Below, piece by piece: positions 22,868-41,819 of a DNA stretch of 41,819 nucleotides. Under the pieces are notes generated by a model. The model made no database searches, had not been told where the DNA came from, and saw nothing but the letters and a program-made list of their open reading frames with translations. Where the stretch lies: the IMG/VR virus record IMGVR_UViG_2579779007_000006, positions 1 through 41,819 of that record. One strand, 5' to 3'. The translations under genes were made by a program, and so were the position numbers. This DNA comes from a virus. Lineage: Duplodnaviria; Heunggongvirae; Uroviricota; Caudoviricetes. Numbering within the stretch: the first letter of the stretch is position 1; every line of letters starts with the position of its first letter.

Positions 22868-23218
22868 TCACTTTAACCGTTCACGGGTCGTCTTCGCCTT
22901 ATGACACGGCCAGCACAGACTCTGCAGATTACTGTCAGCATCAGTGCCGCCATGCGCTTTAGGGATGATGTGGTCAACAGTTTTCGCCTCACGCACCACA
23001 CCAGCACGCAGACATAACTGACACAGGCCTTTGTCACGCTTCAGGACACGCGCGCGGATACTGTCCCACTTCGAACCGTAGCCGCGCTGATGACGGGATT
23101 GTCCAGGTTTGTATTGCTTCCAGCCTTCGCTTTTGTGGCTTTCGCAATAGCCTGACGGGTCAGTGGTGGTATGGCGGCAGCCGCGAATACGGCAGGCTTT
23201 TGGGGTTCGTGGGGGCAT
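22868..23218 (-). CDS. HNH endonuclease (terminase-associated, HK97 gp74-like)
   Basis: 116 aa with CxxC...H...CxxC His-Me finger, located just upstream of the terminase genes. Confidence 0.85.
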   Translation of the reverse strand: MPPRTPKACRIRGCRHTTTDPSGYCESHKSEGWKQYKPGQSRHQRGYGSKWDSIRARVLKRDKGLCQLCLRAGVVREAKTVDHIIPKAHGGTDADSNLQSLCWPCHKAKTTRERLK

Positions 23219-23272
23219 TTAAATTTCTCCTTCAATCATTACTACTGGTCTACCCATCGTAATGGCAACAAA

Positions 23273-23299
23273 AAACCGCCCGTGGAAAGTGGGCGGTTT
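23273..23299 (-). terminator. rho-independent terminator-like hairpin
   Basis: aaaccgccc / gggcggttt perfect 9-bp stem with a T-run on the minus strand, immediately after the 23314..23634 gene. Confidence 0.55.
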
Positions 23300-23313
23300 A
23301 GGAGAGAATCGAT

Positions 23314-23634
23314 TTAAATCAAATTGCCGATAAATTTCGCCTGTACAGACAGAGTCGCACCAGGAACACCAGCAATTCCACCTTCAAGGTAATAACCATC
23401 CCCAATATCTCTCACAGAGAGATCCATCACATAATCGTTAAGGCCTGCAATAACGTTTTGTGCTGAAGGGTTATGGCGGGATACATGAAGTTTCAATACC
23501 CCATCTTGTACACGCCCCTGATAGGTAAACCCAAAATCACCACCATTAACCGCATTATCCTTCACAACGACCGTGCCATTGCCAACATCATTATGACCGC
23601 TTCTGAACACAACAAAATAAATGCCGTCTTTCAT
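23314..23634 (-). CDS. hypothetical protein (moron between lysis and packaging genes)
   Basis: 106-aa ORF followed by its own terminator hairpin; no family recognised. Confidence 0.5.
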   Translation of the reverse strand: MKDGIYFVVFRSGHNDVGNGTVVVKDNAVNGGDFGFTYQGRVQDGVLKLHVSRHNPSAQNVIAGLNDYVMDLSVRDIGDGYYLEGGIAGVPGATLSVQAKFIGNLI

Positions 23635-23726
23635 GTGTATAGTCCTTCAAAAAAATCACCCAAATCAGGTGCTTTGTATCTATTGGGTCATCACATATCA
23701 AATCAAGGAACAAAATAAAGTGAACA

Positions 23727-23996
23727 TCATTTTTTTTGCATGATGTGACCACGCTCAACTTCAATCCTTCTGATGTCAGCTTTATCGGTATTACACTGCG
23801 CCAATGCAGACAACAAGGCGGCATTCAGATCTAAGCTCGAGCCCCACGTAAAATGATCAGGTAAATCAGGCTGAGGGGTTTCAACCGTCAGGCTGGCTGG
23901 CAGTGGTGCCGTCGGAGTGTTCACGTAAACTGTCCGCGTACTTCCGCAACCGCTCAGCAGCGGCAGCAGGCACAAGACGTGAAGCACAATCATCAT
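23727..23996 (-). CDS. Rz1: o-spanin Rz1 (outer-membrane lipoprotein)
   Basis: Starts MMIVLHVLCLLPLLSGCGS with a lipobox (LSGC); lies in the +1 frame overlapping the 3' end of Rz. Confidence 0.8.
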   Translation of the reverse strand: MMIVLHVLCLLPLLSGCGSTRTVYVNTPTAPLPASLTVETPQPDLPDHFTWGSSLDLNAALLSALAQCNTDKADIRRIEVERGHIMQKK

Positions 23997-24736: not shown

Positions 24737-25063
24737 TTACTCCTTAGAGCCACCAAATTTGTTACCGATTACTCGCATTGCAGCCCCACGAATAGCATCG
24801 ACACCGATCAGCCCCACCCCACCACCAATGGCAACAGATAGTGATTTAGGCCATCCGACATACTCAAGAGCGGATGCAAAAGTCAGCGTCAGAGCACCAC
24901 AGAGTAGAATTTCGAGTGTTTTTCGCTTCCAGCCGCCACCACCGCCAAAATAGGCAATACGTAAACCAGCCATAACAATCGACATAATCACTGCGCCCAG
25001 CGGTGTGTCTCCACGCCACCAGCTCTGGACCAACTCCAGCCAGGTATTTGGGTTATGAGGCAT
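24737..25063 (-). CDS. holin
   Basis: 108 aa with hydrophobic helices and a charged C-terminus, immediately upstream of the endolysin. Confidence 0.8.
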   Translation of the reverse strand: MPHNPNTWLELVQSWWRGDTPLGAVIMSIVMAGLRIAYFGGGGGWKRKTLEILLCGALTLTFASALEYVGWPKSLSVAIGGGVGLIGVDAIRGAAMRVIGNKFGGSKE

Positions 25064-25463
25064 TTGTAGTTATCTCTCACCTCGCCAATACAGGAGGTGC
25101 AAATTGAGGGAACATCATGTACCGCAAATCAGAAGCGGAAACGTAAAAGAGGCCGAGCCAATGGATAACTGCGGTATAGACCAGGCTCAACAAATAGCCG
25201 GGTCCAGAAACGACAAACCCGCTCGACGGCGGGTTTAAGCTGTGTGGCGAAGTGACCACTCTTAACACGATACAATAGTTTTTGCGTACGCGTTAGCATT
25301 TTTGATGGAAGTTAATGGTTGTTAATCTTATACTCAGTAAACAAAATTTATGCCGCCTTGAGCATGATGCGACATTAGGCACATGTTTGGATCTTCCTCG
25401 AAGATTCGTGCGGTAGCTATGCTCAAAATCCAATCAGCTCATAAAACATACTATGGGTTTTAA

Positions 25464-26213
25464 ATGCTCATTCCAACATCTCTATCAAAACAACCAGTAA
25501 TCGAAGCTGCTTTCGAAATGCGTTTTTCTAAAGAAACACAAATATCGGAAATAGTTCCAGGGTTTCTTTTTCACGCTCTAGGTTGTACAAAACCAGTAAT
25601 TAGTTTACCACCCAGTCAAATACCTAAAAATGTTCGTGAGGGAGATGAACAATTACATTACGCAGTTGTCAGTCGCCTCGAAATCGAAGGGTACTATATT
25701 GGACTAAGTGACCATGGTGTTGTTGTATCCACCAGCACCAAATATCAAGGGTGGAGTCATTTTAGAGAAAAAATCATTCATGTATTAAATGAGCTTAACA
25801 AATTAAATTTAAATGACAACATCATCCGCTACTCATTAAAGTATGTAGATTTTTTCCCAAAAGAAGACGATTCTAATTTATTTGATAAGCTAAACGTCAG
25901 CTTAAATATGGCTGGCGAGTCTATGTCTAATTATCCGATCAATATCAGAATCGATAAAAATGAAGGCGCATTTCTAAATATAATTCAAATATTATCTCAT
26001 GCTTTAGTCATGTCAGATAATGGAGAATTTAATAAAAAAGGACTAATCCTAGACATAGACAGTATTAGGCAAATCACTAATACTGATGAAATAGATAAGT
26101 TTAAAAACGAACCAAAAAAAATTCTTGATGATCTTCACTCCTGTAATAAATTAGCTTTCTTTAGTTGCCTTAAAGAGTCAACAATTCAAGAACTAGAACC
26201 ATCCTACAAATAG
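25464..26213 (+). CDS. hypothetical protein, possibly TIGR04255-family; cassette gene A
   Basis: 249 aa, AT-rich, opposite strand to all flanking phage genes. The N-terminal PVIEAAFEMRF resembles the start of TIGR04255-family proteins from memory (unverified). Confidence 0.6.
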   Translation: MLIPTSLSKQPVIEAAFEMRFSKETQISEIVPGFLFHALGCTKPVISLPPSQIPKNVREGDEQLHYAVVSRLEIEGYYIGLSDHGVVVSTSTKYQGWSHFREKIIHVLNELNKLNLNDNIIRYSLKYVDFFPKEDDSNLFDKLNVSLNMAGESMSNYPINIRIDKNEGAFLNIIQILSHALVMSDNGEFNKKGLILDIDSIRQITNTDEIDKFKNEPKKILDDLHSCNKLAFFSCLKESTIQELEPSYK

Positions 26214-26228
26214 AAATGGTGGTATGAT

Positions 26229-26573
26229 ATGTATCCGTCTCATCATGTTTATCGAGCTCAACTTCAAGTATTAACTTTGGTTTTATATGGTCTGCATATA
26301 ACAGCATTAACAGACATTGCCCAAAATCAACAGCATGGTCCTCAACAAAGTTTAATCGTCAAAAATCACGCTTTGGAGTATAAGTCTTCAACTACCGATT
26401 CAGTTCATTCCATCACACAAACATATAAAGCAGGGAGCACAATCTCAGTTGATCAAAGACTTGCAGTCTCGATGACAAACTTTTATGAAAAATTATCAAC
26501 AAACCAGGTGTCTTTAGGCAGTGAAATAAATAAAGTCGTTCATGCTTCACTGTGGGATTTATACTTGGATTAA
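26229..26573 (+). CDS. hypothetical protein; cassette gene B
   Basis: 114 aa, 15 nt after gene A, same strand; no family recognised. Confidence 0.45.
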   Translation: MYPSHHVYRAQLQVLTLVLYGLHITALTDIAQNQQHGPQQSLIVKNHALEYKSSTTDSVHSITQTYKAGSTISVDQRLAVSMTNFYEKLSTNQVSLGSEINKVVHASLWDLYLD

Positions 26574-27191
26574 GTGATGAGTAATAACATTTTTGATATC
26601 GAGAAATTCAAAGATCAAATTCCATATTATTTAACAGCTCATCAAAAAGAAGGGCTAATAAATGCACTTAGAGATTTCCCTGAAAACACTAACTACTACC
26701 TTAGCAATTATCATGATGATCTGAAAAATGCTGCACTTCAGGGAGATATATTTAAGGAGCTTACAGTATATTCAATTAAAGGGACTAAAAAAACACGAGG
26801 AATTATATTAAGCAACAGTTGCGATATAGATACAAGTAATAATCGTGATGTGCCAATGCGTGCAGTCTTTGCTCCGTTAGTAAGTTTATCTAAGTTCGAA
26901 GCTATTCTTCTCTCCAACGGAGTTTCTAAGACTTCAATAGATAGCAAAATTGATGCTATAAGGAAGCAGTTAATTACTAATATTTTTTATCTTCCTGAAT
27001 CAGACAACTTAGAAGAATGCATCGTTTTTCTTGATGATGTATACCAATTACCAACGGAAGAATTACAAAAACTCTTGAATGATAAATGCAAAGCCATAAC
27101 TTTAAGTCAAGTTGGTTTCTACATTTTACTATTCAAAATATCTATTCACTTTTGTAGATTCCATGAAAACATACAACGATTCGATCATTAA
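26574..27191 (+). CDS. hypothetical protein; cassette gene C
   Basis: 205 aa; start (GTG 26574 or ATG 26577) abuts the stop of gene B; followed by a terminator. Confidence 0.55.
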   Translation: MMSNNIFDIEKFKDQIPYYLTAHQKEGLINALRDFPENTNYYLSNYHDDLKNAALQGDIFKELTVYSIKGTKKTRGIILSNSCDIDTSNNRDVPMRAVFAPLVSLSKFEAILLSNGVSKTSIDSKIDAIRKQLITNIFYLPESDNLEECIVFLDDVYQLPTEELQKLLNDKCKAITLSQVGFYILLFKISIHFCRFHENIQRFDH

Positions 27192-27218
27192 GGCGGTACT
27201 ACCGCCTTTTATTATTTT
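27192..27218 (+). terminator. rho-independent terminator of the three-gene cassette
   Basis: ggcggt-act-accgcc stem-loop followed by ttttattatttt, directly after the cassette stop codon and abutting the 3' end of Q. Confidence 0.7.
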
Positions 27219-27576
27219 ACACAAGTATACTTACAACCCCCTCTATAAAACCGATTGCGGTTTGCAACTCCTTCCTAATAGTGCCATCAGAGCACCTTCT
27301 CTTTTTGGCAATAGTGCGTAATGAGATACCAATAACAAAGTGGGCTATGATGAGCTCATATTCCTCTGGTTTATACCTTCTCAACCGAGCCACACAACTG
27401 TCTATCATAATGCCTTCGTCATCATCACACTGAATCCGTGACTTTTTGCCATGAGGTAAAAGCCCCTTGAAGCCTGCTGCTACCGACTGCCAGTCCACAC
27501 CACTGTTGTCTGCTGCAGCCCATGCTCCCCAGCGGTCCAATACTTCATACATATCACGCATCAACTTACTCCACAA
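27217..27576 (-). CDS. Q: late-gene antiterminator Q
   Basis: 119 aa with the Q-family motif (LDRWGAWAA...W...AAGFKGLL, CxxC) as in lambdoid prophage Q proteins. Confidence 0.8.
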   Translation of the reverse strand: MWSKLMRDMYEVLDRWGAWAAADNSGVDWQSVAAGFKGLLPHGKKSRIQCDDDEGIMIDSCVARLRRYKPEEYELIIAHFVIGISLRTIAKKRRCSDGTIRKELQTAIGFIEGVVSILV

Positions 27577-38971: not shown

Positions 38972-39321
38972 TGGAGCCATACAGCCTCACACTCGATGAG
39001 GCCTGTCATTTTCTCAAGATATCCAGACCGACTGCCATTAACTGGATACGCACAGGGCGTCTTCAGGCAACACGCAAAGATCCCACTAAGAATAAATCTC
39101 CTTACCTCACAACACGACAAGCCTGCATTGCGGCTCTTCAGTCTCCGCTGCATACTGTCCAGGTGAGCGCGGGTGATGGCATAACAGAGGAAAGAAAATG
39201 TCACTCTTCCGCAGAGGTGAAATATGGTACGCCAGTTTCACATTGCCGAACGGTAAAAGATTTAAACAGTCTCTTGGAACAAAGGACAAAAGGCAGGCGA
39301 CAGAACTCCATGACAAGCTAA
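38971..39321 (+). CDS. xis: excisionase
   Basis: 116 aa ([36 protein letters not shown]) closely matching P22 Xis as recalled; 3' end overlaps int. Confidence 0.85.
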
Positions 39322-40361
39322 AGGCTGAAGCATGGCGGGTCAGCAAACTTGGTGAAATACCTGATATAACGTTCGAGGAAGCGTGTGTCAGGTGGCTTGA
39401 AGAGAAAGCACATAAAAAATCACTGGACGATGACAAAAGCCGGATCGGATTCTGGCTTCAACATTTCGCAGGAATGCAACTAAGAGACATTACTGAATCA
39501 AAAATTTATTCAGCAATGCAGAAAATGACGAACCGGCGTCATGAGGAAAACTGGAAACTCAGGGCAGAAGCATGCAGAAAAAAAGGGAAACCTGTTCCAG
39601 AATACACGCCAAAACCAGCGTCCGTTGCAACGAAGGCTACGCATCTTTCATTTATAAAGGCCCTACTAAGAGCCGCAGAGCGTGAATGGAAAATGCTGGA
39701 TAAGGCACCAATTATTAAAGTGCCTCAACCAAAGAATAAACGGATCCGCTGGCTGGAGCCCCATGAAGCACAAAGGCTGATTGATGAATGTCCGGAGCCA
39801 TTAAAGTCTGTTGTTGAATTTGCACTGGCAACAGGCTTAAGACGCTCGAACATCATCAACCTTGAATGGCAACAAATAGATATGCAGCGCCGGGTGGCAT
39901 GGATAAACCCGGAAGAGAGTAAATCAAACCGCGCAATTGGCGTTGCGCTGAATGATACTGCATGTCGCGTATTGAAAAAACAAATCGGGAATCATCACCG
40001 TTGGGTATTTGTGTACAAGGAAAGCTGTACCAAACCAGACGGAACGAAAGCGCCAACAGTAAGGAAGATGCGGTATGACGCAAACACAGCCTGGAAAGCG
40101 GCGCTGAGACGGGCTGGTATTGATGATTTCAGATTTCACGACTTGAGACACACCTGGGCAAGTTGGCTGGTTCAAGCCGGAGTCCCGTTGTCAGTTTTAC
40201 AGGAAATGGGAGGCTGGGAGTCTATCGAAATGGTTCGTCGATATGCTCACCTTGCACCTAATCACCTTACCGAACACGCACGGCAAATAGACTCGATCCT
40301 GAACCCATCGGTCCCAAATTTGTCCCAGTCAAAAAATAAGGAAGGTACTAATGATGTGTAA
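39198..40361 (+). CDS. int: tyrosine integrase, P22 Int-like
   Basis: 387 aa beginning [47 protein letters not shown] with the catalytic R...HDLRHTWAS...Y region, ending 14 nt from the tRNA 3' end. Confidence 0.95.
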
Positions 40362-40375
40362 CTTATTGATTTTAA

Positions 40376-40451
40376 TGGTGCCGATAATAGGAGTCGAACC
40401 TACGACCTTCGCATTACGAATGCGCTGCTCTACCAACTGAGCTATATCGGC
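40376..40451 (-). tRNA. thrW: tRNA-Thr (anticodon CGU)
   Basis: The reverse complement reads GCCGATATAGCTCAGTTGGTAGAGCAGCGCATTCGTAATGCG...GGTTCGACTCCTATTATCGGCACCA, a canonical cloverleaf with a CGT anticodon. Confidence 0.95.
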
Positions 40452-40565: not shown

Positions 40566-41819
40566 TTACGCACGAATGGTGTAATCACCAATGCCGATCC
40601 ACTTGTAAGTGGTCAGCGCTTCCAGCCCCATTGGGCCACGCGCGTGGAGTTTTTGTGTGCTTACCGCCACTTCCGCGCCCAGTCCAAACTGGCCGCCGTC
40701 GGTAAAACGCGTAGAGGCGTTAACGTAAACAGCGGACGAATCCACTTCGTTAACAAAACGCTGGGCGTTGCGCATATCGCGGGTCAGGATCGCATCGGAG
40801 TGTTGCGTGCCGTGTTCACGAATATGGGCGATGGCATCGTCAAGATCGCTGACGATTTTGACGTTCAAATCTAATGACAGAAACTCATCGTCATACTCTT
40901 CGGCTTTAACCGCCACCACCTTCGCAGGGCCTGTCTGCAACTGCGCCAGCGCAGCTGCATCTGCGTGTAATGTCACGCCGCTTTCCGCCATTTGTTTGCT
41001 TAATGCGGGCAGGAAGCTATCTGCTATGTTTTTATTTACCAGCAACGTTTCAACCGTATTACATGTGCTCGGACGCTGGGTTTTCGCGTTGACGATTACT
41101 TTCAGGGCTTCAGCGATCTCTGCACTTTCATCAACATAAATATGGCATACGCCTATACCACCTGTGATCACCGGGATCGTCGACTGTTCGCGGCACAGTT
41201 TATGCAGGCCAGCGCCACCACGCGGGATCAGCATGTCGATGTATTTATCCATACGCAGCATTTCACTGACCAGCGCACGGTCAGGATTATCAATCGCCTG
41301 CACGGCACCCGCCGGTAAGCCACAGGATTTCAGGGCGTCCTGAATCACCGCCACCGTTGCCGCGTTAGTGCGACAGGTTTCTTTGCCACCACGCAGGATC
41401 ACCGCATTACCGGTTTTCAGGCACAGCGAAGCGACATCAACCGTCACGTTCGGGCGCGCTTCATAAATCACGCCAATAACCCCCAGCGGTACGCGACGAC
41501 GCTCAAGACGCAGGCCGCTGTCCAGTACGCCGCCATCGATTACCTGCCCCACCGGGTCGGCGAGGTTGCACACCTGACGTACATCGTCGGCAATGCCTTT
41601 CAGCCGTGCGGGCGTCAGTGCCAGACGGTCAAGCATCGCTTCGCTAAGGCCATTGGCTCGCGCGTCAGCAACATCCTGGGCGTTAGCGTTGAGGATGATT
41701 TCGCTTTGTGCTTCCAGTTCATCGGCGATTTTTTCCAGCACGCGATTTTTTTCGCGGCTGGAGAGTTGCGCTAATTTATACGAGGCTTGCTTCGCGGCAA
41801 TGCCCATTTGTTCCAGCAT
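40566..41819 (-). CDS. proA: gamma-glutamyl phosphate reductase
   Basis: 417-aa translation matches enterobacterial ProA over its whole length ([30 protein letters not shown]...). Confidence 0.97.

Follow-up and report, generated by a model that had tools for sequence, protein, structure and literature searches.

A three-gene, AT-rich cassette beside the Q gene of a lambdoid prophage: a candidate tripartite toxin-antitoxin-like defence module

What is a block of three genes doing between the antiterminator gene Q and the holin gene S of a lambdoid prophage, on the strand opposite to all of the phage genes that flank it? The question is raised by the IMG/VR virus record IMGVR_UViG_2579779007_000006 (Caudoviricetes), which was analysed over its whole stretch of 41,819 nucleotides (nt), hereafter the window. 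Q and S are 2153 nt apart in this window, and the gap contains a cassette encoding the proteins designated here P1 (249 amino acids, aa), P2 (114 aa) and P3 (205 aa). An earlier note on this DNA had described an antisense, AT-rich three-gene cassette between Q and the holin gene, and all elements of that description were found in the sequence; the interpretation that the note gave is, as a whole, partly supported. With about as much confidence as doubt, we take the cassette to be a moron operon expressed in the lysogen and encoding a tripartite toxin-antitoxin (TA)-like conflict module that serves abortive-infection defence.

The three-gene cassette and its conservation

A total of 100,044 species-representative genomes were scanned with a profile of P3; matches were found in 113 species, and 80 loci were retrieved. 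The loci are distributed over Alpha-, Beta- and Gammaproteobacteria (Pseudomonadota), Desulfobacterota, Bacteroidota, Ignavibacteriota, Verrucomicrobiota, Campylobacterota and Chlorobiota. In 77 of the 80 species-level loci, the gene for P1 is found just upstream; the other three are two loci at contig edges and one divergent copy that still has open reading frames (ORFs) of 247, 115 and 213 aa. Between P1 and P3, an ORF of 90-130 aa is present in every locus (86/86), and 80 of the 81 unique intervening ORFs were recovered by jackhmmer as P2 homologs. In four distant settings with independent gene calls, the order is the same, the sizes are 249-251, 114-118 and 203-220 aa, and P1 and P2 overlap by 8 nt. 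The trio lies beside MazEF and recC in Allochromatium palmeri, among genes for group II intron reverse transcriptases (RTs), ParE, BrnT and Wadjet in Candidatus Symbiobacter mobilis, in a metagenome-assembled genome (MAG) of Magnetomoraceae, and, in antisense orientation, in the nin region of Klebsiella prophages. The three-gene operon is a self-contained, horizontally mobile unit found across many phyla. Whether the trio forms a conserved unit in other genomes was a check proposed in the earlier note, and the answer is strict conservation, both inside and outside prophages. Each of the three proteins matches a separate PHROG family (E from 1e-59 to 1e-132); with such a family for each and with the trio conserved in more than 100 loci, the ORFs are not there by chance.

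In the window, the cargo has a G+C (GC) content of 33.7% as compared with 50.6% for the rest, and it is the lowest-GC 1.9-kb stretch of the entire 41.8 kb. The spacer between P1 and P2 is 15 nt long and contains a GGTGG ribosome-binding site, while P3 starts directly after the stop codon of P2 (spacing of 0-3 nt). The earlier note had also placed a terminator belonging to the cassette against the 3' end of Q, and this element was located: a stem (AAGGCGGTACTACCGCCTT, 27190-27208) is followed by a T-rich tail, TTTTATTATTTT, to about 27218. The terminator overlaps the stop codon of P3 and reaches that of Q, and the distance from P3 to Q is 29 nt in all E. coli-type copies.

For P2 and P3, nothing usable was obtained from Pfam, NCBIfam, PADLOC, phmmer or profile searches of the PDB. 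The statement in the earlier note that these two proteins resemble nothing recognisable is therefore correct for sequence searches, but it does not extend to the predicted structure of P3, which is an SH3-like barrel of the MazF/Kid/CcdB type with a C-terminal helix, the arrangement expected of the CcdB/MazF fold. P3 extends about 55 aa beyond this barrel at the N-terminus and has a conserved helix, HFCRFHE, at the C-terminus. The invariant residues of the family are Q55-G-D57, N80, C82, D83, N88, R90, H191, C193 and R194. In pattern, a basic residue ahead of the GIILSN strand (R74; K in the family consensus) recalls R25/R29 of MazF.

P2 is small, acidic, universally present and encoded immediately before P3. 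Members of the family have a median isoelectric point (pI) of 4.5 and, over the last 45 residues, a mean net charge of -6. The protein consists of a moderately hydrophobic N-terminal segment (median hydropathy over 19 residues, 1.48; the threshold of 1.6 is reached by 23 of 81 sequences), a variable low-complexity linker, and a conserved acidic/aromatic C-terminus ending in NLWDLY. Pfam detected no recognisable DNA-binding antitoxin domain in it. The C-termini of the antitoxins MazE, Kis and CcdA are acidic, contain tryptophan and fill the groove of the cognate toxin, and by this analogy the C-terminus of P2 looks antitoxin-like.

The earlier note had suggested that P1 might belong to the TIGR04255 family. 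It does so with a wide margin: the family hidden Markov model (HMM) matches residues 7-244 of 249 with 96.2 bits (E=2.6e-27) against a curated cutoff of 30 bits, and RefSeq gives the same name. The family comprises 3,495 representatives at 50% identity, 994 of them at E <= 1e-30, and nearly all members are stand-alone proteins of 245-260 aa. P1 likewise forms a stand-alone domain of the alpha/beta class, whose core is a large antiparallel sheet of the TATA-binding protein (TBP)-like type. The sheet weakly resembles TBP-like folds and the catalytic sheets of guanidino kinases and of glutamate-cysteine ligase; P1 showed no likeness to SecB chaperones or helix-turn-helix regulators. Conserved charged residues alternate along the strands (E18/R20, R122/S124/K126, R162 and D197/D199), which suggests a ligand-binding face.

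Degraded copies of the cassette show a single pattern. In all five degraded loci (L033, L069, L076, L081 and L106), P3 is broken and P2 is intact, and no locus away from contig edges combines an intact P3 with damage to P1 or P2. Under a single-hit model, in which P3 makes up 36% of the coding length, five P3 breaks out of five would arise by chance with a probability of about 0.006. The sample is small and may include MAG assembly errors; the decay table was read by hand, as the P2 HMM does not extend over the variable N-terminus. Such a pattern is what is expected if an unguarded P3 is harmful.

P1 also occurs apart from P2 and P3. In ten contigs of phages related to phage P2, a P1 homolog (E about 1e-70) sits between the portal gene and replication gene A, a classical hotspot, and is followed by two proteins of 174-230 and 150-208 aa, which form two coherent families. 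These arrangements are called here type B modules, and neither partner has any profile similarity to P3. The different partners in this hotspot mark P1 as a core common to both kinds of module, whose partners can be exchanged; immune systems are typically built in this way. As side observations, the middle protein of type B gives a weak match to PADLOC PDC-M32A (E=2e-7), and one more contig, L121, has yet another set of partners for P1, of 120 and 223 aa.

With regard to genomic context, the recurrent locations are two lambdoid slots, the phage P2 hotspot (for relatives of P1) and single loci among TA, RT and Wadjet genes. Among 144 nearest-neighbour ORFs, integrases are the commonest family (7/144); parts of restriction-modification systems (helicase, methylase and HsdR) account for about 8/144, and resolvases are also present. 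Such heterogeneous neighbours are the signature of a small mobile island, and the link to defence islands is moderate.

The cargo slot beside Q and other features of the prophage

The 240 nt adjoining the holin gene are about 90% identical to the corresponding DNA of the Shigella phages SfII and SfIV, Escherichia coli 2011C-4315 and many E. coli prophages, and a part of them is shared with lambda/434-like phages at 76-89% identity. They include, on the phage strand, a hairpin resembling a terminator (25237-25214), as well as the block TGCGTACGCGTTAGC (25283-25297), which is invariant in all prophages sharing the slot, whatever the cargo. We predict that they form the late-promoter-proximal (pR'/6S-like) region. 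The cassette had been placed in the earlier note as starting at 25270; this position falls within the conserved region, and cargo-specific DNA begins only at about 25304.

Alignment of the window with SfII and E. coli 2011C-4315 placed the two limits of homology at about 25303 and at the stop codon of Q. Between these junctions SfII carries SfII_50 and SfII_49 (L011 2786-4400), which hit PDC-M53A/B, a candidate system in PADLOC (E=2.1e-32 and 2.8e-54), and the corresponding segment of E. coli 2011C-4315 encodes an NA37-like nucleoid-associated protein and a 404-aa hypothetical protein without a family match (L010 2792-5184). Both of these cargos are antisense to the phage genes. Because the three genomes differ between the same two junctions, the position next to Q is a genuine exchangeable cargo slot, which lies between Q and the late-promoter region and not downstream of the late promoter. 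The view that the gap between Q and S is a hotspot thus holds in so far as sister prophages have other antisense cargo there, but the slot extends from Q to the promoter-proximal region and not from the late promoter to S.

The cassette was detected at an identity of at least 99% in 92 of 5,426 complete E. coli genomes, and the promoter-proximal region in 2,225 of them; records of isolated phages contained no copy of the cassette. In 21 IMG/VR contigs, the cassette is invariably in the slot adjacent to Q. Since orthologous cassettes of 63-68% identity still adjoin Q genes of 71-82% identity, the cassette is indicated to be a long resident of this phage lineage and not a recent insertion. What had been described as an inserted cassette does occupy a variable slot next to Q, but it does not look like a fresh arrival.

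Alignment of six diverged cassettes revealed a conserved leader block, GTTAAnCTTATACT, at 25321-25334, inside which a conserved TATACT (25329-25334) is a possible -10 element of the plus strand. The sole consensus promoter match in this part is on the phage (minus) strand, with a -35-like TTAACA (25325-25320) and a -10 AAAAAT (25303-25298), and it straddles the cargo junction. Judged from these motifs, the minus-strand match and the opposite TATACT may be a pair of back-to-back promoters. Further downstream is a 7-bp inverted repeat, GGATCTTC-CTC-GAAGATTC (25389-25407), followed by the invariant block TCGTGCGGTAGC (25406-25421). RNAalifold found the leader hairpin to be kept in all six cassettes, with one compensatory pair, and the repeat could be either an RNA hairpin or a DNA operator. 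The moron traits observed are the terminator of the cassette, its deviant GC content and the other cargo of sister phages between the same junctions; on the promoter side there is only the conserved TATACT block. The features of the locus and of the rest of the prophage are listed in Table 1.

Table 1. Positions of the cassette, its landmarks and other features (numbering of the window, except for the type B modules, which are numbered on their own contigs)
Feature	Position	Strand	Evidence or remark
Lambda-family holin S	24737-25063	minus	TIGR01594 E=1.8e-35, PF05106 E=5.7e-25; left landmark outside the cassette; start of the lysis/late genes
Conserved region, predicted late-promoter-proximal (pR'/6S-like leader)	25064-25304	minus	Homology to other prophages
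Cassette-specific leader with putative promoter region	25305-25463	plus	Alignment of six diverged cassettes
P1, 249 aa	25464-26213	plus	TIGR04255
P2, 114 aa, small acidic protein	26229-26573	plus	phrog_5728
P3, 205 aa from GTG	26574-27191	plus	204 aa from ATG at 26577 (RefSeq start)
Intrinsic terminator of the cassette	27190-27218	plus	Terminator scan, the sequence itself and junction alignment; right cargo boundary
Q antiterminator	27217-27576	minus	PF06530 E=1.2e-44; right landmark of the slot, outside the cassette
GmrSD-type restriction enzyme, 649 aa	1478-3427	plus	PF03235, PF07510, PADLOC mREase_IV (E=0, 1440 bits); GC 0.41
Low-GC patch (0.40-0.44)	23200-23830	minus	Downstream of the lysis genes
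ORF of 106 aa in the low-GC patch	23314-23634		PF16518, 24.1 bits against a cutoff of 26.8
BRCT-domain protein, 306 aa	34160-35080	minus	PF00533 E=1.4e-6; weak PADLOC PDC-S48, E=2.7e-7
Tyrosine integrase	39198-40361	plus
tRNA-Thr(CGT)	40376-40451	minus	Probable attachment site
Aldehyde dehydrogenase, host gene	40566-41819
Type B modules	L114 7989-9707; L125 7989-9880; L122-L124; L126-L130		P1 homolog and two partners

Several other features of the prophage were noted. At its left end, beyond the tail-fibre genes, the element encodes a methyl-directed restriction enzyme of type IV (GmrSD type), a second defence gene and one of a known kind. A protein with a BRCT domain, a domain unusual in phages, is encoded beside the immunity region. 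The integrase gene is followed by the tRNA-Thr(CGT) gene, presumably an attachment site of the thrW type as in SfII-like phages, and then by host DNA. The second low-GC patch may be another small moron; its 106-aa ORF has a sub-threshold match to GrlR, a regulator of type III secretion.

Possible roles of the cassette

For the module proposed above, we infer toxicity, neutralisation, a trigger and an anti-phage phenotype as follows. P3 would be the growth-arresting effector, a diverged member of the MazF/Kid/CcdB fold. Of the activities of this fold, RNA cleavage is the most frequent and may be that of P3 as well, with CcdB-like poisoning of a protein as the alternative. P2, made just upstream, would keep P3 inactive through its acidic/aromatic C-terminus in the manner of MazE, Kis and CcdA. 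P1, the conserved core, would sense the trigger or control the release of P3, a role suggested because the same P1 family pairs with unrelated partners in the hotspots of phages of the P2 type. A second phage infecting the lysogen would set P3 free and bring growth to a halt (abortive infection), so that the lysogen population and its prophage would be protected.

A number of observations weigh against this reading. P3 gave no match at E up to 1 to Pfam families, including PF02452 (PemK_toxin) and the CcdB family; profile searches of PDB sequences returned neither MazF nor CcdB; and hhalign of the P3 profile with the PemK toxin encoded beside the Allochromatium copy gave a probability of 0.1%. 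A sequence link between P3 and PemK was dropped on this negative result, and because of it the relationship of P3 to MazF is structural only, at the level of a predicted model. The invariant residues of P3 form a constellation other than that of MazF: the canonical catalytic Thr/Ser is not evident, and pattern comparison found no conserved Thr/Ser after the FAP strand. The median pI of the P3 family is 6.3, not basic as is that of most RNase toxins. A simple antitoxin model leaves the hydrophobic N-terminus of P2 unaccounted for, and the promoter scan gave no plus-strand consensus promoter for the cassette. Finally, many copies lie beside ordinary housekeeping genes, and the enrichment of defence genes around the trio, counted without a background control, is modest and is not used as support.

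A minor but serious possibility is that the cassette is purely an addiction module, that is, a tripartite TA system which stabilises the prophage or a small island by post-segregational killing and has no part in phage exclusion. The toxin fold, the operon structure and the pattern of decay speak for it just as they speak for a defence module, and it would fit the long residence of the cassette in one phage lineage as well as the many copies in small islands near housekeeping genes and integrases, which are not recognisable defence islands. The dispersal of a 1.9-kb module over about seven phyla, together with its repeated location in accessory hotspots of phages (for relatives of P1, the phage P2 hotspot), agrees better with defence cargo. 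The two roles do not exclude each other, since many TA modules do both.

It is rather improbable that P3 is not a toxin at all, its barrel instead binding nucleic acid or protein, for example in superinfection exclusion or RNA regulation, with P1 and P2 as partners in a complex. Such a role would be in line with the missing MazF sequence signature and catalytic residues and with the near-neutral charge of P3. The 55-aa N-terminal part and the HFCRFHE helix may form another kind of site, possibly a Cys/His metal site, and the hydrophobic segment of P2 could put the complex at the membrane. Degraded copies in which P3 is broken and P2 intact are what a harmful P3 would predict.

We judge it equally improbable that the cassette is a defence system already described and named. 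PADLOC-DB v2.0.0, which includes the PD-T4/T7/Lambda, HEC and PDC sets, has no family for P1, P2 or P3 at E up to 1, and it dates from 2023, so that a name given since then would escape it. The invariant motifs of P1 (FE[MLC]RF and KYVD variants), P2 (LWDLY) and P3 (HFCRF and SNSCD) do not occur in the searched portions of the supplementary sequence tables published with Rousset 2022 and DefensePredictor, as determined by motif search and not by alignment, and the three RefSeq accessions are absent from the DefensePredictor tables. The same motif searches gave no support to identity with the three-gene system of Rousset 2022 that has no predicted domain and acts against phage P1, or with other systems of phages P2 and P4. 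In full-text searches, no published literature was found on TIGR04255, the RefSeq accessions, the PHROG ids or the InterPro id. RefSeq still annotates the trio as a 'TIGR04255 family protein' and two hypothetical proteins, and the PHROGs likewise have no function assigned. The check for homology to a described system, also proposed in the earlier note, was thus negative for PADLOC v2, Pfam, NCBIfam, the systems of Rousset 2022 and the DefensePredictor supplements. Separately, the name 'TIGR04255 family protein' occurs twice among the SHAP values of DefensePredictor Table S3 (PMC13092281), with positive sums of 14.6 for 9 proteins and 5.9 for 8, which may indicate that neighbours from this family shift the prediction in favour of defence.

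A function in the lytic cycle or lysogeny control of the phage itself, such as a host-takeover RNase or a Q-dependent regulator of late transcription, is suggested by the position directly between Q and the late-promoter region and by the overlap of the leader with a conserved promoter-like sequence of the opposite strand, but it is very unlikely, given that the cassette runs antisense to every phage gene around it and ends in a terminator of its own, that sister prophages hold unrelated cargo in the same place, that the identical trio occurs outside prophages in distant phyla, and that only 92 E. coli genomes have the cassette as against 2,225 with the promoter-proximal region.

If the cassette is a defence or TA module, a function would be assigned to TIGR04255, a family of thousands of members for which no literature was found, and a branch unrecognisable by sequence would be added to the MazF/CcdB toxin fold. 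A design of one core with swappable partners would then be common to the hotspots of lambdoid and P2-like phages. We tentatively extend this to a wider scheme, which is possible but doubtful at present: a modular, so far unrecognised family of three-gene immune systems might have TIGR04255 proteins as its common sensor or controller. In it, type A would have a MazF/CcdB-fold toxin held through a small acidic tether and type B two unrelated proteins, and P1, with its conserved charged residues on one face of the sheet, may bind a nucleotide or nucleic acid or modify the effector in the manner of type VII TA systems. Apart from these roles, the precise cargo slot, from the stop codon of Q to the late-promoter-proximal block, of SfII/e14-like prophages in E. 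coli and Shigella can be mined for accessory systems, and the cassette, being 1.9 kb long with its own terminator, is cheap to clone directly.

Comparison with known systems

The MazEF, Kis-Kid and CcdAB systems consist of two genes, whereas the cassette has three obligatory genes and always adds a 249-aa TIGR04255 protein. P3 is double the size of MazF, with the N-terminal extension and a Cys/His-rich C-terminal helix, and has no sequence similarity to PemK/MazF. P2 differs from the antitoxins of the MazEF type in having a hydrophobic N-terminus in place of a DNA-binding domain.

In its three-gene layout, with a third protein controlling a toxin-antitoxin pair, the cassette resembles the tripartite TA systems TAC (toxin-antitoxin-chaperone), MqsRAC and PaaR-PaaA-ParE. 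Some of these are borne by prophages, as is PaaR-PaaA-ParE in E. coli, and MqsRAC has been reported to act against phages. To our knowledge, neither a TIGR04255 protein nor a MazF-fold toxin of the P3 family is part of any TAC, MqsRAC or PaaR-PaaA-ParE module.

Type III TA systems (ToxIN, AbiQ and CptIN) were considered and ruled out. Their antitoxin is an RNA of tandem repeats, which must be encoded ahead of the toxin gene, and no such locus is present at the cassette, in which Tandem Repeats Finder detected only a trivial 25-nt array inside P2 and Rfam gave no matches.

A precedent for an effector that is MazF-like by structure and lacks the sequence signature is GajC of type II Gabija (Liu-DS1), an abortive-infection system that was validated by experiment in E. 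coli and requires GajC as its effector (PMC13069673). GajC differs from P3 in that it has a split MazF-like domain and is paired with the UvrD-type helicase GajB, whereas the cassette encodes neither a helicase nor an ATPase.

Among morons and hotspot cargo (Stx, bor and lom, the phage P2 and P4 hotspots of Rousset 2022, and PDC-M53 of SfII), the cassette shares the AT-rich composition, a terminator of its own, the opposite orientation and exchange at fixed junctions, while its cargo matches none of the named systems. The stx genes are located downstream of the late promoter, in contrast to the slot described here, which is between Q and the late-promoter-proximal region. With DefenseFinder models later than 2023 and the work of Brenes and Laub 2025, reportedly a screen of E. 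coli prophage defence systems, standing outside this comparison, the trio is on present evidence an undescribed three-gene architecture within a known kind, the TA-like or abortive-infection modules that prophages carry as cargo.

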